From the NCBI GenBank assembly GCA_016176685.1, contig JACOWS010000001.1, positions 78,113 through 142,112 of the forward strand: a stretch of 64,000 nucleotides of DNA, given 5' to 3'. The DNA is from Patescibacteria group bacterium (GTDB lineage Bacteria > Patescibacteriota > Minisyncoccia > Phycocordibacterales > SBAW01). The notes under the pieces were generated by a model, which searched no databases, had not been told where the DNA came from, and saw nothing but the letters and a program-made list of their open reading frames with translations. Positions 10,032-53,192 of this stretch are shown here, in pieces (the stretch's first letter is position 1; each line of letters opens with the position of its first letter). The translations under genes and the position numbers were made by a program.

Positions 10032-10090
10032 AAAGTTATGCGGGAAGACGCTCCTTGAGCATATCAGCAACGGCGGAAAATGTATATTGA

Positions 10091-10849: not shown

Positions 10850-10864
10850 AATTATTTATCTAAT

Positions 10865-11398: not shown

Positions 11399-11423
11399 AG
11401 ATTTTAGAATAGATTATTACAAT

Positions 11424-12654: not shown

Positions 12655-12666
12655 TGATGTATAGGT

Positions 12667-13173: not shown

Positions 13174-13184
13174 ATGCTTGGACT

Positions 13185-13421: not shown

Positions 13422-13466
13422 AGTGTTTTTAAGTTATTTTTTAATTACATTACTTTGATAATTCTT

Positions 13467-18561: not shown

Positions 18562-18634
18562 CCGCCCGTAGCTCAGTTGGTAGAGCAGGAACCTTTTAAG
18601 TTCAAGGTCGCAGGTTCGATCCCTGCCGGGCGGA
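18562..18634 (+). tRNA. tRNA-Lys (anticodon TTT)
   Basis: CCGCCCG/CGGGCGG acceptor, GCTC-AGTTGGTA-GAGC D-arm, anticodon loop CTTTTAA, GCAGG-TTCGATC-CCTGC T-arm; close to E. coli tRNA-Lys body. Confidence 0.85.
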
Positions 18635-18635
18635 C

Positions 18636-19469
18636 ATGGAAAGTTTTAAGCATAGATGCGTTGTGCTACGGAAACAAGATTACTCTCTCTTGGAAATAGC
18701 TAGGATAACCGGTAGGCCGAAGTCATCAGTGTATTTCCATATCCGCAACATACCGCTCAGCCCTAGGAAATATCAAAAAATACACGCACTCAATATACAA
18801 CACCTTCTTCGGGTTGCCCGATCTAGAAAAGGAAAGAGTATAAGGGAGTTTAAAAAAATCTACCGATGGAACCCGGAGAATGTATCGCTAGTTGCCCACC
18901 TTCTTTTCGATGGCGAAATAAAACGAAGTGGTTGTGTATACAATAACCGCAACAAAATATTGTTAAAAAAGGTCGAGGTGAGTATGAAGAAGATGTATCG
19001 TTTTTCTCCAACACGCTATTACAACCCAAACACCGGTGTCTCACGAATAAGTTATTTTAACGTGGCACTAGGAAATTACATGGAGCAAAAAGCAAAAGAA
19101 CTGTGGCAGTGTCTTGGGGAATTACCTCTTGAGACTAAAAGGTCTTTTCTTCGGGCCTTTTTCGACGATGAGGGGTGCATCGATTTTAGACCAAAAACAA
19201 ATTCTAGAAGGATACGCGGCTACCAAAAAGATATCGCAATACTGGAACACGTTTCGCAAGCGTTGCGTAATTTTGGCATTACATCAAGAATCCAAAAACC
19301 AAATGAGGTGGTTATTACCGGCCGCAATAATTTGATCATGTTTCAAAAAGAGATAGGGTTTACCGCTGGAGTGTATATCAACGGGAACCGATCAAATAGT
19401 ATCTGGAAAAAACATCTAGAGAAGCGAGAAATCCTCGCCAGAGCAATTCACTCATATATTAAAGTGTGA
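18636..19469 (+). CDS. LAGLIDADG-family homing endonuclease (double-motif, free-standing)
   Basis: two LAGLIDADG-type motifs LVAHLLFDGEI and LRAFFDDEGCI about 100 aa apart; N-terminal HTH-like LLEIARITGRPKSSVYFHI; GC about 38% versus about 60% in flanks; starts 2 nt after tRNA-Lys. Confidence 0.75.
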   Translation: MESFKHRCVVLRKQDYSLLEIARITGRPKSSVYFHIRNIPLSPRKYQKIHALNIQHLLRVARSRKGKSIREFKKIYRWNPENVSLVAHLLFDGEIKRSGCVYNNRNKILLKKVEVSMKKMYRFSPTRYYNPNTGVSRISYFNVALGNYMEQKAKELWQCLGELPLETKRSFLRAFFDDEGCIDFRPKTNSRRIRGYQKDIAILEHVSQALRNFGITSRIQKPNEVVITGRNNLIMFQKEIGFTAGVYINGNRSNSIWKKHLEKREILARAIHSYIKV

Positions 19470-33319: not shown

Positions 33320-34654
33320 CTATTTCAACATAAGGCGTATTTGATGCACCTCTTGCCCTAATAAACTGTCGGTTATGATATCTCTTTTTACTTTGTCACA
33401 TGAGTGTATAACGGTGGTATGATCTCGACCACCCATTTTGTCTCCTATTGATGGGAAAGAGATATGAAAATCTTCACGTAAAATATACATAATAACCTGT
33501 CGCGGCCGCACTATCTCCTTTCGACGTGTTTTTTCGTAAATACTATTTTCATCAATACCGTAGAAGTCTGCAATAGTTTTTACCACCTCTTGTACCGACA
33601 CCACTTTTTTAGGGCTGCCTGCGCCACGCAGTAATACCTTTGCATCGGCGAGGGTTAGTTCGCGCCCGCGCATCTCAAAGTTTATAAGAAGAGTATTAAG
33701 CGCACCCTCAAGCTCACGCACATTCCCTTCCACAGTACTGGCAAGGTATTCAAGCACCTCGTCTGGGAGTATAAAGTTGTGTTGTATTGCTTTGGTTCGC
33801 ACAATAGCGAGCCGCGATTCGTGGTCCGGTGCGGTTATTGAAACGATCATACCCGCGTTGAAACGAGACTTTATTCTGTCTTCGAGATTTTGTATAAGGT
33901 TGGGATGCTGGTCTGAAGAAAAGACCAATTGTTTGTTACTGTCATGCAGGAAGTTAAAAAGGTGAAAAAATTCTTCCTTCGTTTTTTCCATTTTTGCCAA
34001 AAACTGCACATCGTCCATTATTAAAAGATCATATTGCCGGTATTTTTCCTTAAACCACTGCATCTTGCCCGACTGTACCGAGGACACATAGTCCATAGCG
34101 AACTTTTCAGACGTGAGGTAATGTACTTTTCGATCCGGAGTGCTCACTCTAAAATGGTTTCCTATTGCCTGTATAAGGTGTGTTTTACCCAAACCGGTTG
34201 GTCCGTACACTAAAAGCGGATTGTAGGCGATACCCGGACTACGTATAACGGCTTGCGCGGCCGCATGTGCCAGCTCGTTAAAAGGCCCCACCACAAATGA
34301 GGAAAAGGAAAAACGCGGGTTAAGGTTTGTTTTTGTATGGACCGCTTCGAGTTGGAGCTCGGTGGGTGCCGCGGGCGGCCGCATCTCCTCGATTGCCTTT
34401 TTGGGCCCGCGGGAGATAACATACTCCACATTGCGTATAGAGTCGGAAAGATTGCGTAAAGAGCCGAGAATATCTTTATGAAATTTAGTAGAGAGCCAAT
34501 CGCGGGCAAATTGTGATGGCACACCAAGGTGCACCACGCCGTCGTCTACCCGTAGTATGTGTGTATCTTTAAACCAGGTATTAAAATTAGGCCGCGAGAT
34601 AGAAATTTCAAGCTCCACTAATGCGTTTTCCCAAAGTTCTTTCGTGGTAGTCAT
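33320..34654 (-). CDS. dnaA: chromosomal replication initiator DnaA
   Basis: AAA+ Walker [11 protein letters not shown], Walker [11 protein letters not shown]-terminal DNA-binding domain (..[13 protein letters not shown]); start taken at [12 protein letters not shown]. Confidence 0.9.
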
Positions 34655-34768
34655 ACGGGTGTGCGGTACGACAAGGATACGCGAGCGAACCCAATGCGTC
34701 AAAAATCGTTCCATTACCTTTTTTGTGCACAAGTTGTGGAGAATTGGTGGATATCGTATAGTAGACAG

Positions 34769-34903
34769 ATGTCGCAAACATACCAACCTAAAAAAAGAAA
34801 AAGAGCCCGCACGCACGGGTTTCTTAAGCGCTCCAAGAGCACCAGCGGCCGCAGGACCCTTGCTCGCCGCCGTCGCAAGGGGCGGGCGCGCATTGCAGTG
34901 TAA
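34769..34903 (+). CDS. rpmH: 50S ribosomal protein bL34
   Basis: [44 protein letters not shown] matches L34 consensus. Confidence 0.85.
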
Positions 34904-36499: not shown

Positions 36500-37735
36500 C
36501 TACTGCGTTAACCTAACTCCCCACAGGGCTTGGTTGCCTTGCGCGACAAACACCAGATAGCGGTCGTCCGACGATAGTGCAAAAGTTTCTATAGCCCCCA
36601 CGACCCCGCCGTCTTTTGAGCCGGGCAGTGCCGCAAGGTTGCTCAAACCGGTAGACACGCTGAACGAAAGGACACTCTCCGCCACACTCCCCAACCCTTG
36701 GTGCCAGAGGTCAAGGTAGTTGCTTTGGGTAAACTGGAGCGGTGCGGCACAGTACAGCAGGTCGGTTTTTGCCGCGCTCCAGACGCATTTCTCCGGGAAC
36801 GGGTCGAAGGAAAGCGCAATATCTGTCCCGCTTCCCACATTGCGCACATAGGTGGGGTGTACGTCTCCCGCCGCAGATGTTTTTTGATATACCACGTGAG
36901 AAAAGGTGTTGTCAGCCAGCGCGGTGAGCCCCGCCGCATACAAGAGCGGCACCACCGAGCCGCTTTTAACCCCGATAGAAAACAACATGCCTGGTACGCC
37001 GGCCGCAGATTTAGTCTGTACCAGTAAAGTGTTTAGCGAGGGCCACGAAAGCAAAAGCTCGGTAAGCGGAAGAGAAAATAACTTTTTACTGCCGGTGCCA
37101 TCTGCTTTTGCGGTATACCCGTCGGCCCCACGTGCGGTAACAAGCAGGTACGCAACCTGTGTGCCGTCGGGCGAGGCGGCGATACTCGCTATGTTGTCCG
37201 GCAAAAACTGGATACGTATCGGTGCTGGTGTGCTTGAGGTGGTGGTTGCGGGCGGGAGCGACACATGCACGCTTTTGAGCACGCCGCTGTCAAAGTATTG
37301 GAAGACCACCCCCTCTCCCCCCTCGGTCCATAGTGTGCGCACCACACCGGGGATAGTGGTGTTTGACACGGCGCGCGGTACCGAGCCGGGCGAGTCGAGC
37401 GGGAGGTCGAATATATGCCCGTTGCTTGCGAGCACGTAGCGGGCCATGGTGGTGGTGGGGTGGAGTGTTTGAACCAAGGTGGCGCCAGCAACAGGTCCTG
37501 TGGCCACCAAAAATATCTTCTGTGTGCTCGCTTGGCCGGCGATGGGCTGCAGGTTGTTGGTGTCGCTGCCGCCACTGCCAGTGCCAACGGTAGAAACATT
37601 ACTCCCGGTGCCAAAAGCCGGGCCGTTTGTGGATGTGGGGAGTGCGGCTGGCGCGCGGAAAAAGAAAAACCACGCGGCAAATACCAAAATACTGATGCCA
37701 ACAACTCCCATCACTATTTGTGTTGCTTTGGTCAT
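36500..37735 (-). CDS. hypothetical exported protein with N-terminal TM anchor (last gene of T4SS-like locus)
   Basis: MTKATQIVMGVVGISILVFAAWFFFF anchor followed by Thr/Gly-rich linker and about 330-aa beta-rich domain. Confidence 0.5.
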   Translation of the reverse strand: MTKATQIVMGVVGISILVFAAWFFFFRAPAALPTSTNGPAFGTGSNVSTVGTGSGGSDTNNLQPIAGQASTQKIFLVATGPVAGATLVQTLHPTTTMARYVLASNGHIFDLPLDSPGSVPRAVSNTTIPGVVRTLWTEGGEGVVFQYFDSGVLKSVHVSLPPATTTSSTPAPIRIQFLPDNIASIAASPDGTQVAYLLVTARGADGYTAKADGTGSKKLFSLPLTELLLSWPSLNTLLVQTKSAAGVPGMLFSIGVKSGSVVPLLYAAGLTALADNTFSHVVYQKTSAAGDVHPTYVRNVGSGTDIALSFDPFPEKCVWSAAKTDLLYCAAPLQFTQSNYLDLWHQGLGSVAESVLSFSVSTGLSNLAALPGSKDGGVVGAIETFALSSDDRYLVFVAQGNQALWGVRLTQ

Positions 37736-37738
37736 AAT

Positions 37739-38653
37739 TTATTTTACACACTCATAAGTATCACGCGTAAAATTTTCCTCCACGGAAGAACCCTTTTTAC
37801 TAACTGATCCAGCACACTTACTCGTAAAACTTTGCAGTAGCGCGCTACCGCTTTGGTCATTGCTTTTGATGGTTATAACCCCTGAACTTTCAACTGTTGT
37901 ATTTGACGTGCTATTCGTTTGGGTAGCACTGGTGTTAGTTGTGGCCGCGCCACCCGCGTTACCAGAGGGGCCAAAGTTAAAGTTAAGCAGTTGAGGGTTG
38001 ATGGTTTGTAATATAAGCACCGAAGAAATAAGTATCAAAAGCCCCCACAGTGCGCCACTAATTCGTTTACGGGCCTGCTCCTTTTTGTCGGCTATATCGG
38101 AAACCATGTAGGTAATACCGCCTATAACCAAAGCAAGCACCGCCACCAACCCACCGAGCGAAATAAGAATACGGAACACTCCGTTTAGCAAACTCCCAAA
38201 ACTCCCCGGCTTCCCCGACTCGTCAATATTGCCCGGCAATGGCTCAAGCGGCGTGTAGCACAGCTCCCCCGCCGGCGTCCCCGGCGGGCAAGTGGTTCGT
38301 GTGGTTTGTGTGGAAGGCGCGGAAGGGGTAGAGGGTGTCTGAGGCACAGTAGTTATGTTGCCACTCCGGCTACATTGCAGGCTAGCGGGTCTAATAAGAA
38401 AGCCAGGCGTTTCTTCACAAGAATATCCTGAAGGCACGCCAGTACAGACCCAGGAACCACTAATAACCTTACAGTTGTTTGGTAGTGGAGGTTTTTCTGC
38501 TGGCGGTGTGCAAAGCCAATCCGAATCAACAAAACCGCTCTCTTTGCACGAAAAACTCATTTCCGCAGCGTAGAGTGGTAATGGAGATAAGATTCCTCCA
38601 GCAACAATGGCGAATGCCACAACTGCAAATAGGTTGATGAAAATATTTCTCAT
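37739..38653 (-). CDS. exported Cys-rich protein with C-terminal two-helix membrane hairpin (VirB2/TrbC-pilin-like candidate)
   Basis: signal peptide, 8-Cys domain, Thr/Pro linker, then ILISLGGLVAVLALVIGGITYMV / ALWGLLILISSVLILQ hydrophobic pair as in conjugative pilins. Confidence 0.4.
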   Translation of the reverse strand: MRNIFINLFAVVAFAIVAGGILSPLPLYAAEMSFSCKESGFVDSDWLCTPPAEKPPLPNNCKVISGSWVCTGVPSGYSCEETPGFLIRPASLQCSRSGNITTVPQTPSTPSAPSTQTTRTTCPPGTPAGELCYTPLEPLPGNIDESGKPGSFGSLLNGVFRILISLGGLVAVLALVIGGITYMVSDIADKKEQARKRISGALWGLLILISSVLILQTINPQLLNFNFGPSGNAGGAATTNTSATQTNSTSNTTVESSGVITIKSNDQSGSALLQSFTSKCAGSVSKKGSSVEENFTRDTYECVK

Positions 38654-39690
38654 AAGCCAAAGAAGGAACTTAGGGTATTGCCAGTTTGCTCGCCAAAGAC
38701 TATGCGGAGAGCCGTGGAGGCAGACTGCACAAACTTGCTCGGGTCGTTGTTTTGTAGTGTTACGCCAAGTATGGCGCTCCCTACCCCGCTCCCCGTTTGC
38801 CGGAGTGTCAAAAGCCCGCGCGCGCTGTCGGGCCCGCTGGTTGGCGTACCGTTAAGCGTCCAGGCGTAGGTAGCCGCGCCGCTTGCCACACTGTCGGTCG
38901 AAAAAAAGTACGGCACGGCCTGGAGAGTCAGCTCTTTGCTGCCAAGCGCAATGCCGCTTGGCACCGCCTGGCCGTATAGCACGCCTCTAAGCGGGTCGCG
39001 TGCATATAGTACGAGCTGCGGGTCCTCGGATGGGATTACTATCTCTGCGTGCCCGACTTTTACCTCGCTTAGGTATACATCCACCCCCACCGCCTCGGCG
39101 CTTCGCAGCTGCGAGCCGACAAAGGTAAAGGTGTCGCGCCCCTTGCCCGAGGATTGCGGCACCGGCTCGCCATTTTGCTGCCACTGAAAAGAAAGGTTGT
39201 TGGAAGAAATGGTAGTGCCGTTTGCCACCACCGTGGGGAATGCCGTTACGCTAACTTGAGAGCCGGCGCTGTAGAGGGCCTTACCGGCATAGCGTGGCGG
39301 CACCGAGGTGTCGGCCTCCCACAGCAAGTTTATTGCCGATGGTATAAAAACAAAGTCGCGCACAAAGGTGCCGTTGGTCGGCGAGTTTACCACCACGTGC
39401 ACGCGGGTGGAGACCCCAAGCCCCCCGGCTGTAAAGGAAAAAACTCTCTCCCCCACGCCGGAAAGTGCCGTGGCGCCGTTTTTTTGCCAGGTAATGGTAG
39501 CGTTGCCAAGGAAGGTACCCACCCCTTGTACCTGTATCACCACCTGCTCCCCCGGGCCGGGCAACTCCGGCGCTATCACAAATTGTATGGGGTCCGGCTG
39601 GCTCCCAAGCGTTTGCGCGTGTACTGCCGCGCCAGCCGCCAAGGCGACACCGGCGAGAAACAGCGCGATTATTTTAGGTAGTCGCTTCAT
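38650..39690 (-). CDS. secreted repeat-containing (Ig-like) protein, hypothetical
   Basis: signal peptide MKRLPKIIALFLAGVALAAGAAVHA; internal approx. 90-aa repeats (..WQKNG..PV..SSGKGRDTFTF..). Confidence 0.5.
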   Translation of the reverse strand: MKRLPKIIALFLAGVALAAGAAVHAQTLGSQPDPIQFVIAPELPGPGEQVVIQVQGVGTFLGNATITWQKNGATALSGVGERVFSFTAGGLGVSTRVHVVVNSPTNGTFVRDFVFIPSAINLLWEADTSVPPRYAGKALYSAGSQVSVTAFPTVVANGTTISSNNLSFQWQQNGEPVPQSSGKGRDTFTFVGSQLRSAEAVGVDVYLSEVKVGHAEIVIPSEDPQLVLYARDPLRGVLYGQAVPSGIALGSKELTLQAVPYFFSTDSVASGAATYAWTLNGTPTSGPDSARGLLTLRQTGSGVGSAILGVTLQNNDPSKFVQSASTALRIVFGEQTGNTLSSFFGL

Positions 39691-40111
39691 GTAATTGTGT
39701 TTCCTGCCCATCCGCTTTTTTATATGTTTGAACTGCCCGCTCCTCTTCCTTGACTTTTTTATACGCGCAGCGATAGGCAAGTATGGTCCAACTTGGTGCA
39801 AGGTTTATAAGCGGCAGAGCCTCTCCTAAATAAGTAGCAAAAACAGCGCCCGGGTAAAACATCTTGCCATGTATGAGAAGGGCTGTCAGCAAAACTCCGC
39901 CACCCAGGCCGATACAGACTTCAAATACGTAGCCCAGTATCATTCCAATTGGGATGGTTACAGTGCTTGCTAGCGTCCCTACTACCGGTATAGCTCCAAT
40001 GCCAAAAATAATGCCCGAAAGCGCTAAACCAACCCCAATTTGCAAACCGTCGATAACAGCCCCTACGACTATGTACAGAAATCCTTTTTTTAATGCTTTG
40101 GCAAATAGCAT
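39674..40111 (-). CDS. small polytopic membrane protein, hypothetical
   Basis: 145 aa, 4 TM, directly downstream of VirB4-like ATPase. Confidence 0.45.
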   Translation of the reverse strand: MLFAKALKKGFLYIVVGAVIDGLQIGVGLALSGIIFGIGAIPVVGTLASTVTIPIGMILGYVFEVCIGLGGGVLLTALLIHGKMFYPGAVFATYLGEALPLINLAPSWTILAYRCAYKKVKEEERAVQTYKKADGQETQLHEATT

Positions 40112-40119
40112 ATATGGTA

Positions 40120-41925
40120 TTACGTCTGTTGGCGCTGTTTGCGCAGGGCGAGTACTTGGCTTGGGTCGGAGGTGATTATCTGGTCTTCAGTGTAGGAAGC
40201 GATGACTTTAATGGCCACGTGCTTCATGCCAGCAAAAAAGATACCCTCCCCTACGTCTGATTCTAGCAACAAATACTTTTCTTCGTCGGAGAGGTTAAAG
40301 GTTTTTTGGAGCGTGTCTATCGTGGTCGGCGACTGTTTAAGCAAGAGTTGGATAGATGAGTTGGTTATCATCGGCAAGCCGTACGGCGACTTTAAAAAGT
40401 CGTCCACGTCTTGCGTGATGGTCGCCAGCCCCAGGTAGTACTTGCGGCCGCGCTTGGCCATGCTGTAAAGGAAGGAGGCGGTGTCCTCCGACTTCATCAT
40501 CCACCACGCCTCGTCTATAACGAGCAGGCGTTTTTTAAGGTTTTTGCGCACCGCGTTCCAAATGTAGTGGGTAATCAGGTACATCGCCACCGGCTTTAGG
40601 TCGTCTTCCATATCGCGGACGGAAAAGACGACAAACTTTTTGTTGAGGTCCACGTTGGTGGCGCGGTTGATAAAACCGGCCCACGTGCCCTTGGTGTACT
40701 TGGAGAGCCGCTGGACCAACGACTCGCTCCCCTGCATCCCCGAGAGCACCAGCTCAAAGTCGGAGAGGAGCGGCGGCTCCACCTGGGAAAAGTCGGAGTC
40801 CACGGTAATATCTTTAAGCGCGTAGGTCTCGGTAATCGCTTTGTCTATGAGCGCATCCTCCTCCGGGGTAAGGCCGCCGAGCATGATGCGGAACATCCCC
40901 ACCAGCGCCACAATGTTGCTACGCAGGATGTCGGCGGGGTTTTCGTCTTCCCTCGGGGGGGCAAGGTCAAACGGGTTTATGTGGTGCTCGGAGTTGAGAG
41001 AAATGTTGAAGTACCGCCCGCCTACCGCTTGGGAGAGGAACTCATATTCCCGCTCCGGGTCTATCACTATTACCTCGGCATCAAACATCAACGTGCGCAA
41101 AATTTCAAGCTTGGTGGCATAGCTTTTGCCGGAGCCCGACTTGGCAAAGATAACCGAGTTGTAGTTTTCCAAAGAAAAGCGGTCAAACAACACCAAGGAG
41201 GCATTGTGTCGGTTGACGCCATAGAGTATCCCGCGGTCGGAGGTGAGGTCGAAGGAAACGAATGGAAAAATGGAGGAGAGCGGGCTGGAGTTGAGCTTGG
41301 AATTGACATTCAGCTCGTCCTTCCCCAACGGCAAGACCGACTTAAAGCCCTGCTCCTGCTGGAAGAGCGCCGGTTTTACATACACCAGGCGGCTCTCGAG
41401 CATCGACTTTATCTCGCTCTCCGTTTTGTCGAGCTCTTCTGTTGATGCACCGTATAGGGTGATGTACACGCCCACGTCAAAAATGCGTTCTTGCGCCTGC
41501 TGGAGCTGGTCGCGCAGGTCCTCCAGGTCGCGGTACGCGGTGTCGAGCATCGGGTCGCGGACCATGCCCTTTTCCTCCCGCGCCATAATCTGGCTTTGCA
41601 CCTCGGCTACTTTTTTTTGAAACTTTTTGAGTATCTCGGCGGAGTCTATCGGGTGGATAAAAACAGAGATGTCGAGCACGCGGTCGAGATTGATAATGGG
41701 GGCAAACCACGAGTCGGTAAGCACCCGGGGGTAGGACATCACAAAAAAAGTGCGCGCAATTTTGTCGCCCAAGTTTATTTCGCGCGGGGTAATTTTGAGC
41801 GCGGAGGGCGCTATGACATCCTGGAGCTCCAAGACCCCCTGCTTGTATATCTGCTCGGGCATAATAGGCGCCACCGGGGTGGTTTGCGAGAGCTTTTTTG
41901 GTTTTAGAAAGTCGAGTAATGCCAT
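40120..41925 (-). CDS. virB4: type IV secretion VirB4/TrbE/TraC-family ATPase, C-terminal (ATPase) part
   Basis: Walker A FAKSGSGKSY and the family-specific Walker B RLLVIDEAWWMM (DEAW) plus LGLATITQDV. Confidence 0.8.
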   Translation of the reverse strand: MALLDFLKPKKLSQTTPVAPIMPEQIYKQGVLELQDVIAPSALKITPREINLGDKIARTFFVMSYPRVLTDSWFAPIINLDRVLDISVFIHPIDSAEILKKFQKKVAEVQSQIMAREEKGMVRDPMLDTAYRDLEDLRDQLQQAQERIFDVGVYITLYGASTEELDKTESEIKSMLESRLVYVKPALFQQEQGFKSVLPLGKDELNVNSKLNSSPLSSIFPFVSFDLTSDRGILYGVNRHNASLVLFDRFSLENYNSVIFAKSGSGKSYATKLEILRTLMFDAEVIVIDPEREYEFLSQAVGGRYFNISLNSEHHINPFDLAPPREDENPADILRSNIVALVGMFRIMLGGLTPEEDALIDKAITETYALKDITVDSDFSQVEPPLLSDFELVLSGMQGSESLVQRLSKYTKGTWAGFINRATNVDLNKKFVVFSVRDMEDDLKPVAMYLITHYIWNAVRKNLKKRLLVIDEAWWMMKSEDTASFLYSMAKRGRKYYLGLATITQDVDDFLKSPYGLPMITNSSIQLLLKQSPTTIDTLQKTFNLSDEEKYLLLESDVGEGIFFAGMKHVAIKVIASYTEDQIITSDPSQVLALRKQRQQT

Positions 41926-41933
41926 ACCGTTAT

Positions 41934-42608
41934 TTATTTTACCGCTTCGGCCATCTTGGTGACTTGGAGCGGCTTCTCGAGCTCGCCGGGGTTGAATAGT
42001 TTGTAAAACAGCTCGATAACCTCCTCGGTGCCGAGCTTTACCACGCGCACGCCGGTGCGCACCAGCCCCTGCTCGATAACCGCCACGCGCTGCTCCAGCT
42101 GGGTGCGATACTGCTCAAACTGCAGATCGGTGGGGGCAACCGCACTGCTACCACCCGACGGCAAAAGCGAGGAGAGCGAGCCCATGACCCCGCCGCCGCG
42201 GACAAAGAGCGCCGGGTCGTACGGCACTACAATGAAGAAGTTTTTGGTCATGATGTTTGCCCGCTCGGTGAAGTCTTTTATAAAGGCGATGTACTCGCGT
42301 ATCTGTATCTTCATCAGGTCGTCCAGCTCGGCGGCATAGCGCTCTTCGAGGAGCGCTATGTAGGGGCGGATGTCGAGCTCGCGGCTTTCGATAAAAAATT
42401 GCACGGTAAACTCCAGCGAGTTAAGAAAGTTTTGAAACTGGCTGACAATGGCCTGCTGCTCGTCTTGCGACTTAAGCGCCAGGTTTATTGATGAGGCCAT
42501 AAGGAGCGCGCGCAGGCTCCCGTCTTTGAGTATCACCAAGCCATCCCGCACCTCTTTGAGTGGGACAAATTCCTGCGTACCTTTTGTTTTTACACCTCCT
42601 TCGTCCAT
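41934..42608 (-). CDS. VirB4-family N-terminal domain protein (separate ORF)
   Basis: TQEFVPLKEVRDGLVILKDGSLRALLMASSINLALKSQDEQQAIVSQFQNFLNSLEFTVQF resembles the N-terminal region of Gram-positive-type VirB4 (TrsE/PrgJ); stop at 41934-36, downstream ATG at 41925. Confidence 0.6.
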   Translation of the reverse strand: MDEGGVKTKGTQEFVPLKEVRDGLVILKDGSLRALLMASSINLALKSQDEQQAIVSQFQNFLNSLEFTVQFFIESRELDIRPYIALLEERYAAELDDLMKIQIREYIAFIKDFTERANIMTKNFFIVVPYDPALFVRGGGVMGSLSSLLPSGGSSAVAPTDLQFEQYRTQLEQRVAVIEQGLVRTGVRVVKLGTEEVIELFYKLFNPGELEKPLQVTKMAEAVK

Positions 42609-42618
42609 AATTTGTATC

Positions 42619-43074
42619 TCAAATTTCAAACCCGGTGCGTACTTTGTTTTCCGTAACGCCCATGGTGGTACGGTCTTTGATGTTGAGCGACCACGCAAGG
42701 TCTTTGAGCCGGCTCTCCGACAGCTTGGGGACCGGCAATAGCGGTCCCGGCGGTTTGGCTGTGGCCCCAGCCGCTTCTCGCGCAGGGGCCGCGGTATGCG
42801 GCTTCCATAGGTACAGCTTGTTGCCCAAGAGATACCCAAAGGCGTGCTCCAAGACCACTATAAAGGGCCGGCCATTAACCTCGTAAAAGGCAAGCGCGGC
42901 CGCAAAAACCATAACCGGTATGATAAAAATCACCGCAAGCCAGAGCGGCAAGAGCGTAAAGAAAGCGAGAGAAAGTCCGCCGCCGCCGGCAAGGTAGATA
43001 AATTGTTTAAAGGTCAAAGGCCCAAAGATCTTGTCCTCGACCTCTATAAACTGCGGGACTTGGTACCGAGCCAT
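42619..43074 (-). CDS. VirB3/TcpE-like small membrane protein
   Basis: MARYQVPQFIEVEDKIFGPLTFKQFIYLAGGGGL followed by two adjacent TM helices, the architecture of TcpE/PrgI-type VirB3 homologs that precede VirB4. Confidence 0.5.
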   Translation of the reverse strand: MARYQVPQFIEVEDKIFGPLTFKQFIYLAGGGGLSLAFFTLLPLWLAVIFIIPVMVFAAALAFYEVNGRPFIVVLEHAFGYLLGNKLYLWKPHTAAPAREAAGATAKPPGPLLPVPKLSESRLKDLAWSLNIKDRTTMGVTENKVRTGFEI

Positions 43075-43097
43075 CGCTCATAAGTATATCGCACCTT

Positions 43098-43673
43098 TTA
43101 CTCTACCGGCTCGCGGTAGGGGTCGGCTTTGTAATTTTGCGGCTTGGGCGGCTGTTGGTTGCCGGTTGTTTGTTGTTTGTGGTCAGTGGTTGGTTGCGGT
43201 ACCGGAGTCACGCTCGCTGTTTTTTGCGTGAGCATCAAGTCGGCCGAGTGCATCTCTGCTGGTTTTGGCGTAAGTAGTGGTGCCGTCACAGGGGCTGAAA
43301 CTGGCGTGGGGGTTACTGGTGTAGAGGAAATCGGCGACACACTTCCCAACTCGGCCACTTTTTTCATAGAGTCGCGGATTTTTAAAAAAAGCATATCATT
43401 TACATCTCGGGCAACTGCGCCGGCTTTTGCTTGGTCAATTTGCAGGACCTCTGCCACGTGGGTGACAAAATCATTTGGCTTGGTAAAACCAATCATCACA
43501 TCGACCGCCTCTGCCTCCAGCACTCCCATTTGGTCAATATGCAACGTGTGTTTGGCACCAATCTGGCGGATAATCGAATCCATATCTGCGCTATAAATAA
43601 TATTTCGTATATCCTCCGGTAGCGACTCAAGCCGCCGTCCAACCTCTTCTGGTGTGTGTAATTCTCGTACCAT
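43098..43673 (-). CDS. hypothetical protein with Pro/Thr-rich tail
   Basis: 191 aa, soluble N-domain then TPVTPTPVSAPVTAP low-complexity. Confidence 0.4.
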   Translation of the reverse strand: MVRELHTPEEVGRRLESLPEDIRNIIYSADMDSIIRQIGAKHTLHIDQMGVLEAEAVDVMIGFTKPNDFVTHVAEVLQIDQAKAGAVARDVNDMLFLKIRDSMKKVAELGSVSPISSTPVTPTPVSAPVTAPLLTPKPAEMHSADLMLTQKTASVTPVPQPTTDHKQQTTGNQQPPKPQNYKADPYREPVE

Positions 43674-43692
43674 AAATAAATTGTAACACTAG

Positions 43693-45942
43693 CTAAATAA
43701 TCTCGGTACGCACCGGTGTTGCTGGGTTAGGAGTATTTTTCATCTCAACTTTTACCCGATACTCTCCGGCTGTCTTTGTGTCGCTTACCGCCGATGGTAT
43801 TTTTTTAGTCTCATCAGCGAGCTTGTTCAGAGAATTTTTTACTTCTTGGAGGCGTGCGGCGTTTTGCCCGGCAATAACCCGATCTTTTTTGGAAAGGTCA
43901 GTATCACGGCTCTTGAAGTTTTCTGCGGCAACCTTATCGTTTATCTCTACAATCATTTCTTTTACAGATGCAGAATTTATCAGCGCTCTCTCGGCAGTAT
44001 GTGCAGAAAGTTTTTCAAGAGATACCCCGCGCGCTTTAAGTTCTTCGCGCACCTTCTGCAGCTCGCGTACTATCTTTTGTGTTTGTTGGCGCGGAGCATC
44101 GCCTGATTGCTCGTGCCATACTTTTTCGAGATTCTCTTTTTGTTTATCGGAGATTTTGTCGAGTTCTTTAATAGCCGCCATTTGTTTCTCGCTTACGTGT
44201 TCAATCACACCGTTCAACTGCTTATAGTCCATCTGTCCTAACTGGTTTTTAGAAAGGTTCCTGATCCTCTCTTTGTCTCGCGGGGAGGGTGCGCGGCCCT
44301 TCGCTACAGCGTGAACCGTACTCGGGGCGCCCAAGTCAAGAGGGAGGGACCCGTACTTGGCGTAAGCCGCCCCGGCGGCAACCTCTGGGATCTTCGTAAC
44401 ACCCGGCACCGCGCGCACATCATAGGTCCTATTTTGGAGAAAGCTCCCCACCCCCGCAGCTCCGGCTCGGCTCAGTCGAGTAACTACTCCATCTGTCGCT
44501 GTGCTGGCCGAACCTAACCTCCTTAGGCCCCCTCCCACCGCTGTGCCAAAAGTAAGTCTGCCAAGCCCGGCCACTGCCCCAAGTCCTGCCCCAAATACTT
44601 TCCCTTGGAACGAGCGCGCCCAACCAGAACCGGCTTTCACTATCATGTCCGCGCCGGAGAGCGCTACGTACATCATCGCAATAACAAACCCCATGCGGAT
44701 AGCCACGCTTGCTATTGCTACACCTACCGTTGCAACAAAGGACTCGTTGTTTGGCGTTTGGCCCGCCGCCCAGATACCATTGACCAAGTTGCCGCTTTGC
44801 GCCATTTCTTTCATAAATGTGGTAAGGATGAAGAACAAAAAGAGGTATATCGCCGGGTAGAACGAGTACTTAACAAGCGCCTCAAGCCACTGGTCGTACA
44901 GTTTTTTTGTGGCCGGCACATTGAGCGCGCGGCCAATGAGTGCAAGCGGCGCGGCGATGATAACGATCCACAGCCCGACCACCCGCATCACAAACTTTGC
45001 CCCCGCAAAGAGGAACGACCCCGCCAAGAGCGCAAACATAATCCCTACCGCCACATACACCAGCGATAGGGTGATAACTGTGTACAGAAACCCGTTGACC
45101 CCGCTGCCTGCTTCACTTTTGTTGTACAGCTGAAAACTTGGGGTATTAAAAATATTGTCAATGCGAACCGCGCTCATAATGCTATAGGTTAGGTCTTTGT
45201 ATTGACCGCCGGCAAAGCTGGTGACCACATTGGGGCCCGGCAGGGTGTTGGTGCTGTTGCTTACCCCGATGGGGTGGTACTCTATGAGGTTGTAAAACTG
45301 TATTGCCAGCACATTGCCGCCATCTATCACCACCCGGGTGAGGAAGAAGCTAAAGTTGATAACCAATGCCACCACAATGACGCCGGCGAGCATCTTCATC
45401 GTGCCCCCGGTTTCGGCCTTGAGCATCACGGTAAAGGCGATGTAGATGAGGATAAATATGAATGCCATGTTGGCGAGGTCGCGCGTGGTTTCCCAGCTGG
45501 TGTTGAGGAAGCTTAGCGCATAGGCGGTGCTGTCGAGAGAAAGTTGCACGGCAAAGCTAAAAAAGTATGCGGCAATGTAGGCAAAGGAGCCAAAGAGCCC
45601 CACCATAACGTAGTAGACGATGTTGGAGATGCAGAAGGCGAACCAATTATTGCCGCTAAAATTCAAGCAGCCGGAATTGTCTTCTGTGCCAAAGTCGGTC
45701 TTAGCAGCTTTATTGGACTCCTGTGCCGCGGGGTTGGCTGTTGCAGTGGTGTTTGGGGTGGTGGATAGCGGGTCTGCTTTGCCCGCGGTGTTGACGGTTT
45801 GGGGGTCGGCAGGCTCAATCGCTTGTGTTAGGGAAATTGACTGCACCAGTGGCGAGAATGCGAGCACCACCATAATTCCCGTGAGCAAGGTTTTTGCCCC
45901 CATGCGCAAAATGTTTTTCTTTATGTTATAGGCCAAAGGCAT
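43693..45942 (-). CDS. VirB6/TrbL-like polytopic membrane protein with long C-terminal coiled-coil extension
   Basis: N-terminal signal, periplasmic segment, about 6-8 TM helices across residues 100-450, then about 280-aa charged coiled-coil tail; position upstream of VirB3/VirB4. Confidence 0.5.
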   Translation of the reverse strand: MPLAYNIKKNILRMGAKTLLTGIMVVLAFSPLVQSISLTQAIEPADPQTVNTAGKADPLSTTPNTTATANPAAQESNKAAKTDFGTEDNSGCLNFSGNNWFAFCISNIVYYVMVGLFGSFAYIAAYFFSFAVQLSLDSTAYALSFLNTSWETTRDLANMAFIFILIYIAFTVMLKAETGGTMKMLAGVIVVALVINFSFFLTRVVIDGGNVLAIQFYNLIEYHPIGVSNSTNTLPGPNVVTSFAGGQYKDLTYSIMSAVRIDNIFNTPSFQLYNKSEAGSGVNGFLYTVITLSLVYVAVGIMFALLAGSFLFAGAKFVMRVVGLWIVIIAAPLALIGRALNVPATKKLYDQWLEALVKYSFYPAIYLFLFFILTTFMKEMAQSGNLVNGIWAAGQTPNNESFVATVGVAIASVAIRMGFVIAMMYVALSGADMIVKAGSGWARSFQGKVFGAGLGAVAGLGRLTFGTAVGGGLRRLGSASTATDGVVTRLSRAGAAGVGSFLQNRTYDVRAVPGVTKIPEVAAGAAYAKYGSLPLDLGAPSTVHAVAKGRAPSPRDKERIRNLSKNQLGQMDYKQLNGVIEHVSEKQMAAIKELDKISDKQKENLEKVWHEQSGDAPRQQTQKIVRELQKVREELKARGVSLEKLSAHTAERALINSASVKEMIVEINDKVAAENFKSRDTDLSKKDRVIAGQNAARLQEVKNSLNKLADETKKIPSAVSDTKTAGEYRVKVEMKNTPNPATPVRTEII

Positions 45943-47842
45943 AGCATTGTGTCAACTCCGCATTGGTTGCTTGGTTTTGTGCCGCCAGCTGTGCTTGCAG
46001 GGTGGTGCGGTCTTGGAGCGCGGTGGTAACGTCGTTTTGCGTAATGAGCTCGCCTAGGGCTTCTGCCGCGGCAAACTGGGCATCCGCCGCCCGCACCTCT
46101 TTGAGCGTGCGCGCGGCAAGTGCCGCGGTTTGTATCTCTTGCACCGCGACAATAGCGGCGTTAGCGCGGGTAATCCCCGTGTTGTATGAGGCAACCTGCA
46201 CCTCCAGCGCTTGCACCGCCGCGTCTGCCGCCGCAACACCGGCGAGCGCCTGCGCTTGCTGCGATGCGGTCAGGCCGGTCGAGGAGGCGGCCGTGCTCCA
46301 GCAGTTTTGCAACCCCACCAGCTGTGCTTGGGCGTTTTGTATGTCGGCAATGCTTCCCTGCTTGGTGGTACCGTACTGCTGGGCCACCCCCACCGCGCTT
46401 TGGAGTTTGGTAAGGAGAGATTCCGCCGCAATTTGTGCTTGCACATCTTGCGCGCTCGAAAAGTTGCCCGCGTAGCCGTTTTGCCCGCTTAGGTTGGCAA
46501 GCCCCTGGTAGAGCACGCGGGTCATCAGCTGGTTGATGAGCGCGCTTATAATTTCGTCAAAATTGTCGGCAAGGTTGAGTGAGTCTATGTTGGTGCCAAG
46601 CGTTTTATGCAGCTCGGCCTCTATGGTTTGGCCGGGGGTCACTATCTTGCACGACGTTTGTTTGCCGTAGTTTGGAGTGCCTGGCACCGTGTTTATAGGG
46701 CCATCACATTTTTCCTGCGAGAGAAATCCGCCGGGAGATATTTTGAGTCCGGCATCCCTGCTGTCTTTAAGTATCTTATTGTTAAGCGCTATCTGCCCAT
46801 ACATGTACGCGCCGTAGGGGTTGTTGGTCGGCTCGGTGGTAACGGCCAAAAGTCCGCCCCACCCACCGCTTGAAAAGCCGTTGTTGAGAAAATCGTCCAC
46901 ATTGGTTACCGCCTTCGAGAGTGTGCAAGAGGTTGCGGCGGCATTGCTCCCGCTCCTTTGGTGTGCATAGCTCTGTGCTATGGCGATGCGCACCTGGAGC
47001 TTAAACGGACTGCACAAAAAGGCCAGGTCGCTCCCTTGGATAAACTCGCCCGCGGCCCTGTCGGCCACGTTGGTAAAAAATTGCTTGTAATCTTGTACAA
47101 ACGCCGGCTTGCCGTCAAAGCCGGAGTTTATCCAGTCAACCACGCTCGCGGTTACCTGCTGTATCACCGAGCGGGCTATGCCTCGCGCAATGCAGTTAAG
47201 GAAGTTGTCCCGCACCGTGTTGGATGCGTCGACAGCATTTTGCACCGGCGCATTTACCGTCACCGCAACAAAACTAAGCGCCGCGCTTATGCCAGTACCC
47301 CCCACGGCGCCGCTTAGGAGCCCGGGCGTGCAGGCAATTGCTCCAGCCACCCCCGTCCCAACAAGTGTTTCAAGCAGCCCGGGTCCGCTTAGCCCTTTAG
47401 CGTTATTGAAGTATCCTGTCCCGTTGATGCCCACATTGTTTATTTGGTTTATAGGCGTCGGGGTAAAGGTTTTGGTGCTTCCCGTGCCGCCACCACTACC
47501 GTCTAGCCAGGTAACATCAGTGACGGTAGTGGTGGTAACGGTAATGGTAATTGGCGGCGACACTCCGCCCGTTGGCCCTCCTCCCGTGTATGTTGGTAGA
47601 GGGGTTTGTATATTGGCCGAGCCCCCTCCTCCTGCAGATATACTGTTTTGACCAAAGGGTGTTTGTTGGTTGCCGCCGCTCAAAGTGCCGGAGCCCGGAG
47701 TGCCCGTACTGCTTGCCGTGTTAAAAAAACCAAAATCTTCCGGTGTTTTTGGACCTTGGCCGAAGAACCAAAACCATACAAAAATGATAAGCCCCAGCAC
47801 CACCAGAGCCCCCACGATGATAAAAATAAGTTTGCGTTTCAT
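45926..47842 (-). CDS. large exported protein, N-terminal TM anchor, Gly/Thr-rich stalk (hypothetical T4SS surface component)
   Basis: MKRKLIFIIVGALVVLGLIIFVWFWFF anchor; TITVTTTTVTDVT stalk; C-terminal Ala/Gln-rich coiled-coil; 17-nt overlap with next gene. Confidence 0.5.
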   Translation of the reverse strand: MKRKLIFIIVGALVVLGLIIFVWFWFFGQGPKTPEDFGFFNTASSTGTPGSGTLSGGNQQTPFGQNSISAGGGGSANIQTPLPTYTGGGPTGGVSPPITITVTTTTVTDVTWLDGSGGGTGSTKTFTPTPINQINNVGINGTGYFNNAKGLSGPGLLETLVGTGVAGAIACTPGLLSGAVGGTGISAALSFVAVTVNAPVQNAVDASNTVRDNFLNCIARGIARSVIQQVTASVVDWINSGFDGKPAFVQDYKQFFTNVADRAAGEFIQGSDLAFLCSPFKLQVRIAIAQSYAHQRSGSNAAATSCTLSKAVTNVDDFLNNGFSSGGWGGLLAVTTEPTNNPYGAYMYGQIALNNKILKDSRDAGLKISPGGFLSQEKCDGPINTVPGTPNYGKQTSCKIVTPGQTIEAELHKTLGTNIDSLNLADNFDEIISALINQLMTRVLYQGLANLSGQNGYAGNFSSAQDVQAQIAAESLLTKLQSAVGVAQQYGTTKQGSIADIQNAQAQLVGLQNCWSTAASSTGLTASQQAQALAGVAAADAAVQALEVQVASYNTGITRANAAIVAVQEIQTAALAARTLKEVRAADAQFAAAEALGELITQNDVTTALQDRTTLQAQLAAQNQATNAELTQCYAFGL

Positions 47843-48738
47843 TGTGGCAATGGCAACAGCGCGCTCCAGGCAGCCCCCGGCTCGCTCTTGTCAAAAAGTA
47901 TAGCGTTTTTGGCCAGTTGCTGTGCGATGTTTGTCAACACGCGCTCCGTTTCTTGCACCAAAGACTGGTAGAGCTGTATCCCGGAGAGCCCGCGCAAAGG
48001 GTCCCCTATCACCGCCGCCATGTCGGGGTAAGTTTCCGCCATGCGCGCGAAGTTGTTTACCACCTGCAAGTGCAGCGGCGCCAGCGTTTGCGGTACCAAA
48101 AGCGCCGCAAGCTCATCGGCTATCGCCTGATACTCGGCCCCAATGGCGGCAAGCGGCGCAAGCGGAGCCGGATCGTTACTGTCGGTGGCGCGCCCCACGG
48201 CAATCAAGGTGTCCACATAGCTCGCCTTGGGACGGTTTTGTACCACCGCGATAACCGCATTGCCGTAGGCGTGCAGTGTATCTGGCGTTGTGGATATTGG
48301 GTTTAGGTCGGCGGCCGTGTACACGCCGGCACCCCTGTTTTGGCTTACCTGCGAGAGAGCGTCGGCAATGAGCGCGTCTTGGGTGGGTATGTCGTCGCCA
48401 AGTCCCTGCGCCTTAGCGTCTGACAATTTTATAAAAAGACTGCGGCCTATGGTGTTGGTTAGGTTCTCGCTCTGCGCCGCCCCAAGGAGGTTTAAGACGC
48501 TGTCTTTGTTGGGGCTTTGCGGCAAGCCGGCACTGCTTTGTGCCTGTATGTCGTGCAAGGTTGTAAGCCAATTGTCTCCCGCCTGGTTGGTGGTAGATAC
48601 GGCGACCCCTCCCGGCGCCTTTCCCGCATCTCTACCGGTTAGGTAGTCTGCCGCAAACACCAACCCTGCCGAAAGCGCCACTGCGCCCACCATGAATGCA
48701 AACTGCGCACTGGGCAGGTACTCCCGTATACTCATCAT
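47839..48738 (-). CDS. membrane-anchored hypothetical protein (first gene of T4SS-like operon)
   Basis: N-terminal TM FAFMVGAVALSAGLVFAA; 4-nt overlap with downstream gene. Confidence 0.5.
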   Translation of the reverse strand: MMSIREYLPSAQFAFMVGAVALSAGLVFAADYLTGRDAGKAPGGVAVSTTNQAGDNWLTTLHDIQAQSSAGLPQSPNKDSVLNLLGAAQSENLTNTIGRSLFIKLSDAKAQGLGDDIPTQDALIADALSQVSQNRGAGVYTAADLNPISTTPDTLHAYGNAVIAVVQNRPKASYVDTLIAVGRATDSNDPAPLAPLAAIGAEYQAIADELAALLVPQTLAPLHLQVVNNFARMAETYPDMAAVIGDPLRGLSGIQLYQSLVQETERVLTNIAQQLAKNAILFDKSEPGAAWSALLPLPQ

Positions 48739-48778
48739 CGTTTAGTATACAAGAGATTCTGTACGGTATACTGTCTTT

Positions 48779-49129
48779 ATGGTTTCTTTTAAGAAAATGT
48801 TTGTGCTCGCCGCACTTATTGGTGTAATGAGTGCTCCGCTTGTTGCATCGGCATTCGGTACTTCTTTCGGTGGGCGGATACTATCTGTTATTCCCTGCTC
48901 CGGCGGGATGCGTCACGTAACTATTATTCCGGCGGGTGTCTTCCCCATATCCTACATATGGACCCCGTTTACCATTACCTACTCGGTCGGAGCGCCACGG
49001 CGTCCGGGCCAGCAGATACTCGGAGTGGCGGACATCCCGTTTGTCTGTTTTGTAGGCGGTGGCGGATTCTTCTCCTCCCCAGTACCGCTCCACGGTTTGC
49101 GGATGCAGATAGTCGGCACCAGCCCCTAA
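48779..49129 (+). CDS. small secreted protein, hypothetical
   Basis: signal peptide MVSFKKMFVLAALIGVMSAPLVASA; divergent from T4SS-like operon. Confidence 0.3.
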   Translation: MVSFKKMFVLAALIGVMSAPLVASAFGTSFGGRILSVIPCSGGMRHVTIIPAGVFPISYIWTPFTITYSVGAPRRPGQQILGVADIPFVCFVGGGGFFSSPVPLHGLRMQIVGTSP

Positions 49130-52232: not shown

Positions 52233-53192
52233 TTGTTTGCGCCACCCGCACAAGCGGCGGCTACCCAAGCATTAGCACTCAACTCCCAAACACTTCCCCT
52301 ACTTGCACCGGCGATAAACCTCGACCCAAACCCAGCAAAAGGAGGCGGCGGCATCACCGTGGTTGACGGCACGGCGCTTTTGCCGGCAGAAGGTCCGTCA
52401 GGCACCGCAGCCGACATAGAAGAGTGGCCGACCTCCTCGCAGGTGTCGGTGTATACCGTGCGGCCAGGCGACACCCTGTCGCAGATTGCAGAGATGTACA
52501 ACGTTTCCATCAACACCATCATTTGGTCAAACGACATTGCGGGTGGGGTGATCCGCCCCGGCGACAGTTTGGTAATACTCCCTATCACGGGAATCAAACA
52601 CACGGTGACCAAGGGTGAAACACTTTCCTCAGTAGCTAAAAAGTTTAATAGCGATGCTACCGAAATCGCCCAGTACAACGGTCTTGAGGCGGGTGCGCCG
52701 CTTGCGGTGGGGGCCTCTATAATCATCCCCCATGGTGAGATAGCTGCAGCCCCCGCTCCCGCCAAGAGTACTAAAACAAAAGTTCCTTCCGCACCGCTGC
52801 ATGACGCGGGCGGGCCCGACCTCGGCGGCTACTGGGTCTTGCCTATTGCAAGCGGCATTGTCACCCAAGGGCTCCACGGCTACAATGGCGTTGACATCGG
52901 CGCGCCAAAAGGAACCGATATTTATGCTGCGGCTGGCGGCATTGTGCTGGTTGCACGCTCTAGCGGATGGAACGGCGGCTACGGCATCTACCTGGTTATC
53001 CAGCACGACAACGGCACGCAAACACTCTACTCGCACGCAAGCAAGATACTGGTCTCCGCGGGAGACCGTGTCGCGCAAGGACAAACTATAGCGCTGGTCG
53101 GCGCAACCGGCCTTGCAACCGGCAACCACCTCCACTTCGAAGTCCGTGGCGCCAAAAACCCGCTCGGCAACTTACCAGTCGGCACGCGGTAG
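52233..53192 (+). CDS. LysM-domain M23-family peptidoglycan endopeptidase
   Basis: two LysM repeats (YTVRPGDTLSQIAEMY; HTVTKGETLSSVAKKF) and M23 catalytic motifs (HGYNGVDIG, GNHLHFEV); annotated from a TTG start, but see finding on upstream in-frame signal-like extension. Confidence 0.8.
   Translation: MFAPPAQAAATQALALNSQTLPLLAPAINLDPNPAKGGGGITVVDGTALLPAEGPSGTAADIEEWPTSSQVSVYTVRPGDTLSQIAEMYNVSINTIIWSNDIAGGVIRPGDSLVILPITGIKHTVTKGETLSSVAKKFNSDATEIAQYNGLEAGAPLAVGASIIIPHGEIAAAPAPAKSTKTKVPSAPLHDAGGPDLGGYWVLPIASGIVTQGLHGYNGVDIGAPKGTDIYAAAGGIVLVARSSGWNGGYGIYLVIQHDNGTQTLYSHASKILVSAGDRVAQGQTIALVGATGLATGNHLHFEVRGAKNPLGNLPVGTR

Follow-up and report, generated by a model that had tools for sequence, protein, structure and literature searches.

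A chromosomal, relaxase-less type IV secretion locus beside the replication-origin genes of a Paceibacteria genome

We analyzed a 64,000-nucleotide stretch of the genome of a Patescibacteria group bacterium (assembly GCA_016176685.1, contig JACOWS010000001.1, positions 78,113 to 142,112 of the forward strand). We call this whole stretch the window and count positions from its first letter. Its source is a metagenome-assembled genome (MAG) of the Paceibacteria (Parcubacteria). The interval 36500-49129 carries a type IV secretion system (T4SS) locus. This is the origin-proximal, relaxase-less T4SS cluster that nearly all Paceibacteria carry, a real and biologically important locus. With a probability of roughly 0.85, we read it as the Paceibacteria version of the chromosomal Patescibacteria-clade T4SS. 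In this reading, the system goes back to the conjugation machinery of monoderms of the mating-pair-formation class FATA (MPF-FATA), has lost its link to a relaxase and a coupling protein, and has been inherited vertically beside the origin genes.

The locus belongs to a type already described in papers of 2023-2025 and is not new. A survey of 3,035 Patescibacteria genomes (Quinonero-Coronel et al. 2025, PMC12102498) reports a monophyletic VirB4 clade nested in MPF-FATA. Its commonest associated component is TrsD; PrgI/VirB3, VirB6, and VirB2-like pilins also belong to it, and relaxases are almost absent. The same survey places the Paceibacteria T4SS near dnaA, dnaN, ksgA, rnpA, and rpmH. For its epibiotic growth, Southlakia epibionticum requires SEML1_0006-0019, the Saccharimonadia counterpart of the system (Wang et al. 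2023, PMC10633639). In reviews, the Patescibacteria T4SS ranks as a new subgroup among T4SSs, one whose function is unknown (PMC12857230, PMC11665869). The locus in the window shows several traits of this 'Patescibacteria-clade T4SS', namely a separate TrsD-like protein, PrgI/VirB3, a VirB2-like pilin (PF18895/PF04956), no relaxase, and origin-gene flanks.

Eleven minus-strand genes run in one row from 48735 down to 36500. A first-pass annotation, made from the letters of the DNA alone, had described a T4SS-like locus of eleven co-directional, tightly packed genes, and this description holds at 36500-48735. The intergenic gaps range from -17 to +23 nucleotides (nt), which fits with one operon, and the row probably is one. 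A twelfth gene, conserved, small, and encoding a secreted protein, lies on the plus strand at 48779-49129 inside the interval. Two open reading frames (ORFs), 41934-42839 and 38650-39801, are start-codon extensions of genes whose true starts are at 42608 and 39690, respectively. Downstream of the row lie jag/R3H, yidC, rnpA, and rpmH (plus strand), followed by dnaA and dnaN. Upstream lie ksgA and uvrD/pcrA.

The VirB4 motor and its membrane partners

We scanned for relatives of VirB4 with one genome per species and obtained at least 592 genomes. The best 80 were used for the locus comparisons. Their VirB4 proteins are 75-93% identical to that of the window, and they come from Patescibacteria MAGs, mostly labelled Paceibacteria or Parcubacteria, together with a few unclassified MAGs.

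The gene at 40120-41925 (minus strand) encodes a VirB4 ATPase of 601 amino acids (aa) that comprises the middle and C-terminal P-loop domains. It matches the NCBIfam VirB4-like CD1110 family over model positions 180-734 (E 1.5e-117; 393.8 bits, cut-off 325), and it also matches Pfam P-loop_TraG and AAA_10. The nearest solved structure is the C-domain of Thermoanaerobacter VirB4 (4AG5, E 7.6e-42), with which the Walker A motif GSGKS and the Walker B motif DEAW align. The VirB4-family ATPase with a DEAW Walker B, as noted in the first pass, is thus borne out by both a curated family and a structure. The scores against other VirB4-type models lie far under their cut-offs: 133.7 bits for TIGR00929 (cut-off 643), 36.3 bits for CedB (cut-off 700), and 17.8 bits for CedD (cut-off 600).

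About 180 N-terminal model positions are absent from the ATPase gene and are encoded by the preceding gene (41934-42608, minus strand). Its product, a separate TrsD-like protein of 224 aa, aligns to TrsD/TraD (E 2.7e-9) and covers positions 2-116 of the CD1110 VirB4 model. A public gene call gives the same length and assigns PF26593 (TraC-like). Against NCBIfam TrsD/TraD (NF041427), the protein scores 37.1 bits, under the curated cut-off of 200. It therefore reads as TrsD-like in architecture and not, at that cut-off, as a member of NF041427. A search of the N-domain against the PDB returned nothing meaningful. The N-domain gene and the ATPase gene lie in different reading frames with an 8-nt gap, and in 77 of 77 loci the N-domain has an ORF of its own. 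Hence, the split of VirB4 is genuine, and a frameshift is ruled out as its cause. The separate N-domain ORF had been recognized before and stands, but it is shorter than first drawn, and its start at 42608 leaves no real overlap with the PrgI gene.

The PrgI/VirB3-like protein (42619-43074, minus strand; 151 aa) has two hydrophobic segments and matches Pfam PrgI with 46.9 bits (gathering score 27), while its TcpE match is weak. This agrees with the TcpE/VirB3-like protein with two transmembrane (TM) segments that had been placed upstream of VirB4. Further upstream, 43693-45942 (minus strand) encodes a polytopic membrane protein of 749 aa with about seven to eight hydrophobic segments and a long, charged, helical C-terminal tail, the 'extended VirB6' layout. 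A profile of this tail matches coiled-coil proteins only. The polytopic topology claimed for this protein is confirmed and its tail agrees with the coiled coil described, but its match to TrbL falls below threshold. Taken together, the topology, the position upstream of PrgI, and the sub-threshold TrbL match make a VirB6 identity probable. In pCF10, the order is PrgH-PrgI-PrgJ, where a VirB6-like gene likewise lies upstream of PrgI, and Southlakia shows this position too.

The pilin-domain protein is encoded at 37739-38653 (minus strand; 304 aa) and matches Pfam T4SS_pilin with 31 bits (cut-off 26.6). It is built of a signal peptide, an N-terminal ectodomain with eight Cys, a two-helix hairpin (residues 153-217), and an S/T-rich C-terminal tail with two Cys. 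The Cys-rich exported protein with a VirB2-like hairpin was thus correctly identified, except that the hairpin is central and does not end the protein. We find the pilin-domain protein in 67 of the 80 loci, and 31 of 33 orthologues match T4SS_pilin. Conservation is confined to residues ~133-227. The Cys-rich ectodomains are variable, and the orthologues range from 134 to 580 aa.

Inheritance of the locus and the question of conjugation

The order uvrD-ksgA-[locus]-jag-yidC-rnpA-rpmH-dnaA-dnaN recurs across the 80 related genomes. Among loci with long enough flanking DNA, 58 of 61 contain dnaA and 50 of 55 contain ksgA. We computed median identities over 67 more distant loci. The VirB4 ATPase reached 78%, its N-domain 61%, and PrgI 50%. 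The neighbouring proteins gave 54.5% (DnaA), 51% (UvrD), 48.5% (KsgA), 40% (DnaN), and 36% (YidC), the Ig-like exported protein of the locus gave 30%, and the other exported or membrane parts gave 25-27%. VirB4 is thus better conserved than DnaA (33320-34816, minus strand), DnaN, KsgA, UvrD, and YidC. Judging from these identities, the motor is more constrained than the replication initiator, and the surface parts evolve fast.

The identity of VirB4 co-varies with that of the neighbouring housekeeping genes (Pearson 0.81-0.96). Plasmid VirB4s are at most 36% identical, and the best of them all come from monoderms (Firmicutes or Actinobacteria). We therefore consider the locus vertically inherited. 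DnaA boxes in the window are not enriched (15 seen, 10.4 expected), and the cumulative GC skew of the window shows no turn, so that the origin proximity is read from the gene neighbourhood alone.

No ORF of 150 aa or more in the window matches a relaxase, type IV coupling protein (T4CP), or VirB11 family, in agreement with the earlier statement that VirD4, VirB11, and relaxase are missing from the 64 kb. This raises the question of whether the locus is a conventional integrative and conjugative element (ICE), or a recent remnant of one, whose relaxase and coupling protein are encoded outside the window. The CD1110 family of VirB4 is indeed typical of Firmicutes conjugative elements. Moreover, many Patescibacteria genomes hold VirD4-like genes elsewhere (PMC12102498), and the view here is of 64 kb. 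However, the surroundings are not those of a mobile element. In 80 genomes that span a class, the locus keeps its place between the same housekeeping genes, its identity follows that of its neighbours, and its G+C content (0.52-0.57) is similar to that of the flanks. No integrase, relaxase, or repeat boundary adjoins it, and the sole integrase-family gene in the window is XerC/D-like and lies at 62 kb. The flanks consist of ksgA/uvrD on one side and jag/yidC/rnpA/rpmH/dnaA/dnaN on the other, with no conjugative set. The T4SS-like identification withstands the refuting conditions set in the first pass, as VirB4 and PrgI both score above curated cut-offs and no conjugative set adjoins the locus. 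The survey PMC12102498 reports relaxases in just 103 of 3,035 Patescibacteria genomes. On synteny, identity co-variation, and composition, we reject the ICE reading and regard it as highly improbable.

Our main reading is a descent from MPF-FATA machinery. The monoderm T4SSs of this class include pCF10 Prg/Pcf, pGO1/pSK41 Trs (TrsC-TrsD-TrsE), pIP501 Tra, and the C. difficile CTn (CD1110). The locus shares with them the best VirB4 model (CD1110), the N-domain matching TrsD/TraD, PrgI, and the absence of outer-membrane core components, and its nearest plasmid VirB4s are all from Firmicutes or Actinobacteria. It differs from them in the low VirB4 identity (at most 36%) and in being vertically inherited and not mobile. 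Also, we found no relaxase, T4CP of the PcfC/TraJ type, oriT, PrgB-type adhesin, VirB1-type hydrolase, or VirB8-like protein here. Conversely, the locus has a VirB2-like pilin, which Gram-positive systems otherwise lack (PMC12857230).

Several points weigh against the reading as a vertically inherited Patescibacteria-clade T4SS. For the clade membership of VirB4 the evidence is strong but indirect, namely its closeness to Paceibacteria MAG proteins (75-93%), the CD1110 match, and the identity of at most 36% to any plasmid VirB4. The TrbL/VirB6 match of 43693-45942 is sub-threshold (21.1 bits, cut-off 25.9), and 6 of 33 VirB6-like orthologues match TrbL weakly (E<0.01). In the two exported proteins of the row that were modelled (45926-47842 and 47839-48735), there is no VirB8-like (NTF2) or VirB1-like (lysozyme) fold and no specific PDB relative. 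Promoter and terminator scans of the locus were at or below chance and are uninformative. Finally, the search for conjugation genes covered the 64 kb only. VirD4-like genes are common elsewhere in Patescibacteria genomes (PMC12102498), and a distant coupling protein is therefore possible.

Exported, accessory, and neighbouring genes

Six of the eleven row proteins have no family match in Pfam or NCBIfam and are lineage-specific. Four of them are exported or anchored, one is a small polytopic protein, and one is cytoplasmic with a DPYRE tail. The first-pass count of at least five further signal-anchored proteins without a family was therefore too high, as four are signal-anchored.

The cytoplasmic protein is encoded at 43098-43673 (minus strand; 191 aa) and has no TM segment. 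In alignments, a helical N-domain of ~105 aa is followed by a variable linker rich in P and T and, at the C-terminus, by the near-invariant motif DPYRE. Of the 80 loci, 64 contain exactly one ORF with the ending DPY[RH]E, mostly just upstream of PrgI. By exhaustive profile search, the family counts 8,676 representative clusters at E<=1e-3, and the DPY[RH]E ending is present in 148 of the 149 best profile matches. We found no relative of the family in Pfam, NCBIfam, or PDB, and a literature search on the motif gave nothing relevant. One public gene call shortens the protein to 161 aa, although the invariant residues L18 and P19 precede the start that it uses. We infer that the protein may act as a docking factor or adaptor.

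Downstream of VirB4, 38650-39690 (minus strand) encodes a secreted protein with three tandem immunoglobulin (Ig)-like domains of ~100 residues each. The earlier start proposed for this gene does not hold: the real start at 39690 gives 346 aa plus the stop. Comparing the orthologue profile with itself, we find that positions 44-219 align with 140-330 (E 3e-14), and the profile also matches the Ig-like domain of T4 Hoc (E 7e-5). The three-Ig protein is present in 75 of the 80 loci. In three relatives, L004 (11863-13566), L007 (2229-3929), and L010 (11812-13449), it is fused to the small polytopic protein encoded upstream. In the window, that protein is a variable accessory, a Gly-rich membrane protein of 145 aa (39674-40111, minus strand) without a family match. 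Its residues 11-80 are continuously hydrophobic, which we read as several spans. A gene-sized slot between VirB4 and the Ig-like gene is present in about half of the loci and vacant in the other half.

The last gene of the row (36500-37735, minus strand) encodes an N-anchored exported protein of 411 aa with a single N-terminal hydrophobic segment, an S/T/G/P-rich linker, and a beta-rich domain that contains two invariant Cys. A hidden Markov model (HMM) of its orthologues matches at the same position in 66 of the 80 loci. No Pfam or NCBIfam family scores above threshold. The PD40/TolB hints and internal repeats are weak, the TolB hint being non-significant in a profile search against the PDB (E 0.37), and a beta-propeller fold is a guess. 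We searched profiles of the 411-aa, three-Ig, VirB6-like, DPYRE-tail, and small secreted families against the PDB, and the only usable signal was the Hoc match of the Ig-like domains.

Two exported helical proteins are encoded at the upstream end of the row. The first gene of the row (47839-48735, minus strand) encodes an N-anchored exported helical-bundle protein of 298 aa, which is 100% identical to NCBI HYS79_00730 (298 aa). Its AlphaFold2 (AF2) model has a mean predicted local distance difference test (pLDDT) score of 79.8, with more than 90 over the bundle (residues 140-280). A Foldseek search of this model against the PDB gave nothing below E 0.4, and hence an NTF2/VirB8 fold is not seen in it. 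The adjoining gene (45926-47842, minus strand) encodes an N-anchored exported protein of 638 aa with a Gly-rich linker, a central domain with eight Cys, and a C-terminal long helical bundle. Its AF2 model (pLDDT 62.9) contains a confident helical bundle, and a few homologues bear a peptidoglycan-binding domain. Across the 80 loci, HMMs of the accessory families match in 52 to 75. The smallest counts are 52, for 47839-48735, and 55, for the gene adjoining it. Both genes lie farthest upstream and can be seen only in the 55 loci that have at least 8.5 kb of upstream DNA.

The gene divergent from the row (48779-49129, plus strand) is a candidate accessory gene. It encodes a small secreted protein of 116 aa with two invariant Cys, lies 43 nt from the first gene of the row, and overlaps the end of ksgA by 4 nt. 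We find it at the same position in 20 loci, divergent in 19 of them. The signal peptide and the motifs FGG, Y(I/V)WTP, GQxLLG, PYxC, and MMGSS are kept in 15 aligned orthologues. The product has no Pfam or PDB relative. In one Logan record (L081), no gene is called at 48779-49129.

These accessory genes set the locus apart from its Southlakia counterpart (PMC10633639, PMC12102498). Both have an MPF-FATA-like VirB4, a separate TrsD-like N-domain, PrgI/VirB3, a VirB6-like protein, and a VirB2-like (PF18895) pilin, and both show the core order VirB6 - x - PrgI - TrsD-like - VirB4. Both are chromosomal, lie beside dnaA, dnaN, ksgA, rnpA, and rpmH, and have no relaxase or T4CP nearby. However, the Southlakia system carries an array of six small pilins, an NTF2-like (VirB8-like) protein, and peptidase/lysozyme genes downstream of virB4. 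The locus in the window instead has one large pilin-domain protein with Cys-rich ectodomains, and it adds the three-Ig, beta-rich anchored, two helical exported, and DPYRE-tail cytoplasmic proteins. The extracts of the two papers name neither the single large pilin protein nor the three-Ig, beta-rich, helical exported, and DPYRE-tail proteins.

The rest of the window contains further genes and regions. A LysM-LysM-M23 peptidase is encoded at 52233-53192 (plus strand), 3.5 kb from the locus, and is linked to it in only a few related genomes; PMC12102498 notes VirB1-like hits with M23/LysM domains. PilB (23015-24697, plus strand) and ComM (55631-57193, minus strand) are both present in the window, as reported earlier. 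ComM and PNPase (58842-61070, minus strand) lie within 10 kb of the locus, a proximity that may be coincidental. A 2026 preprint (10.64898/2026.06.21.733656) uses PNPase together with VirB4 to mark RNA-based parasitism in this phylum. RuvABC, PolA, and a XerC/D-type recombinase are also encoded in the window.

A block at ~2000-14000 has a lower G+C content (0.43-0.47) than the nearby DNA (~0.53-0.57) and carries a set of thiol/redox genes. These encode two pyridine-nucleotide disulphide oxidoreductases, a G6PD-6PGD fusion, DsbD_TM, two redoxins, DUF3179, an FMN reductase, and a dual-specificity phosphatase. The set could have a bearing on the many exported, Cys-rich proteins of the T4SS. An ORF with a LAGLIDADG domain (18562-19469, plus strand; 277 aa) begins directly after tRNA-Lys(ttt). 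The Rfam scan of the window found two tRNAs and nothing else. Two ORFs have no family match. One, of 485 aa (53582-55039, plus strand), has no TM segment and lies in a stretch of low G+C (0.457). The other, of 421 aa (57686-58951, minus strand), has a central TM segment and a disordered N-terminus.

Possible functions of the apparatus

The first-pass hypothesis, in which an episymbiont with a reduced genome would use an envelope apparatus for taking up DNA or contacting its host and not for conjugation, agrees with the published view (PMC12102498, PMC10633639, PMC12857230, PMC11665869). In such an apparatus, VirB4, the N-domain protein, PrgI, and VirB6 would form the cytoplasmic-membrane translocon and the assembly motor. 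The pilin hairpin may polymerize into, or line, an extracellular conduit with the variable Cys-rich ectodomains facing outward. The Ig-like, beta-rich, and helical exported proteins would provide the cell-wall-spanning and host-contacting parts. The whole would mediate an essential exchange with the host cell, either import or export of macromolecules, and not conjugation.

The direction of transport has precedents on both sides. H. pylori ComB is a diderm set of VirB2-4 and VirB6-10, and Ced of the Sulfolobales uses CedA and CedB. Both are VirB4-family-powered, relaxase-less, and used for uptake, and they are the model most often proposed for Patescibacteria (PMC12102498, PMC11665869). By this model, the T4SS would work in reverse and take host DNA, RNA, or other macromolecules into a nucleotide-auxotrophic cell. 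We entertain it as a real, if tentative, possibility. There is no relaxase or T4CP nearby, and the motor is extremely conserved, as expected of an essential supply line. The model is favoured in the literature (concluding remarks of PMC12102498; PMC11665869). Furthermore, the 2026 preprint reports host-RNA feeding and tubular structures, possibly T4SS pili, in a cultivated relative. ComM, PilB, and PNPase are encoded in the same window. However, the VirB4 of the locus scores only 36 bits against CedB, far below the CedB cut-off of 700. No ComB-type VirB7, VirB9, or VirB10 is found, and no homology of the other parts to these systems was seen. Also, ComM and PilB within 64 kb of a small genome are weak evidence.

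Bordetella Ptl and Brucella VirB, of the diderm MPF-T type, have VirB7-11 and known secreted substrates. They translocate effectors without a coupling protein (PMC12857230, PMC12102498), and the locus may similarly export effectors or other proteins into or onto the host. Wang et al. proposed protein export for the Southlakia system (PMC10633639). Two conserved neighbours, the small secreted Cys protein encoded divergently and the DPYRE-tail protein, could be substrates or adaptors. Nevertheless, Ptl and Brucella VirB belong to a different VirB4 subfamily (TIGR00929), and our family searches find in the locus no effector-like gene with a recognizable toxin or enzyme domain. The small secreted protein carries its own signal peptide and would thus use Sec. 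We regard such export as a slighter possibility.

A simpler role would be that of an adhesion or pilus organelle. There, VirB4 would only power the assembly of a decorated VirB2-like filament for host attachment, with no substrate transport. The wide occurrence of the pilin-domain protein, its conserved hairpin with hypervariable ectodomains, and the fast-evolving Ig-like or helical surface-type character of the other exported parts fit this role. Of the genes of unknown function in cultivated Paceibacterales, those for T4SS pilins belong to the most strongly expressed (PMC10936435). However, these genomes already have type IV pili for attachment (PilB in the window; PMC12857230). That the locus encodes a VirB6-like channel protein and that VirB4 is so strongly constrained also suggest more than filament assembly, and we find the purely adhesive role unlikely.

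A bolder proposal is a distinct, class-specific T4SS architecture. The motor, conserved more than DnaA, and the unnamed families (DPYRE, three-Ig, beta-rich, two helical, and small Cys) would together form a host-piercing conduit for the import of host nucleic acids, and a former conjugation machine would thereby have become an essential feeding organelle. The DPYRE peptide would dock on the VirB4/VirB6 complex as a regulator or substrate receptor that replaces the coupling protein. We put this forward as speculative and doubtful.

Few machines have been shown to be essential to the epibiotic life of these ultrasmall bacteria, and the Patescibacteria T4SS is among them. The window offers a clean and typical case from the Paceibacteria; it does not introduce a new kind of system. 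The additions made here are small, namely the DPYRE family, the three-Ig exported protein, the small divergent secreted gene, and the finding that two modelled proteins lack a VirB8 or VirB1 fold. As the accessory gene set is unlike that of the Saccharimonadia system, results from Southlakia may not transfer directly. The DPYRE family, very large, unannotated, and encoded between VirB6 and PrgI, is a concrete candidate for the missing cytoplasmic adaptor. A conserved VirB4 together with fast-diverging exported parts is the pattern expected of a constrained motor that drives a host-adapted surface.

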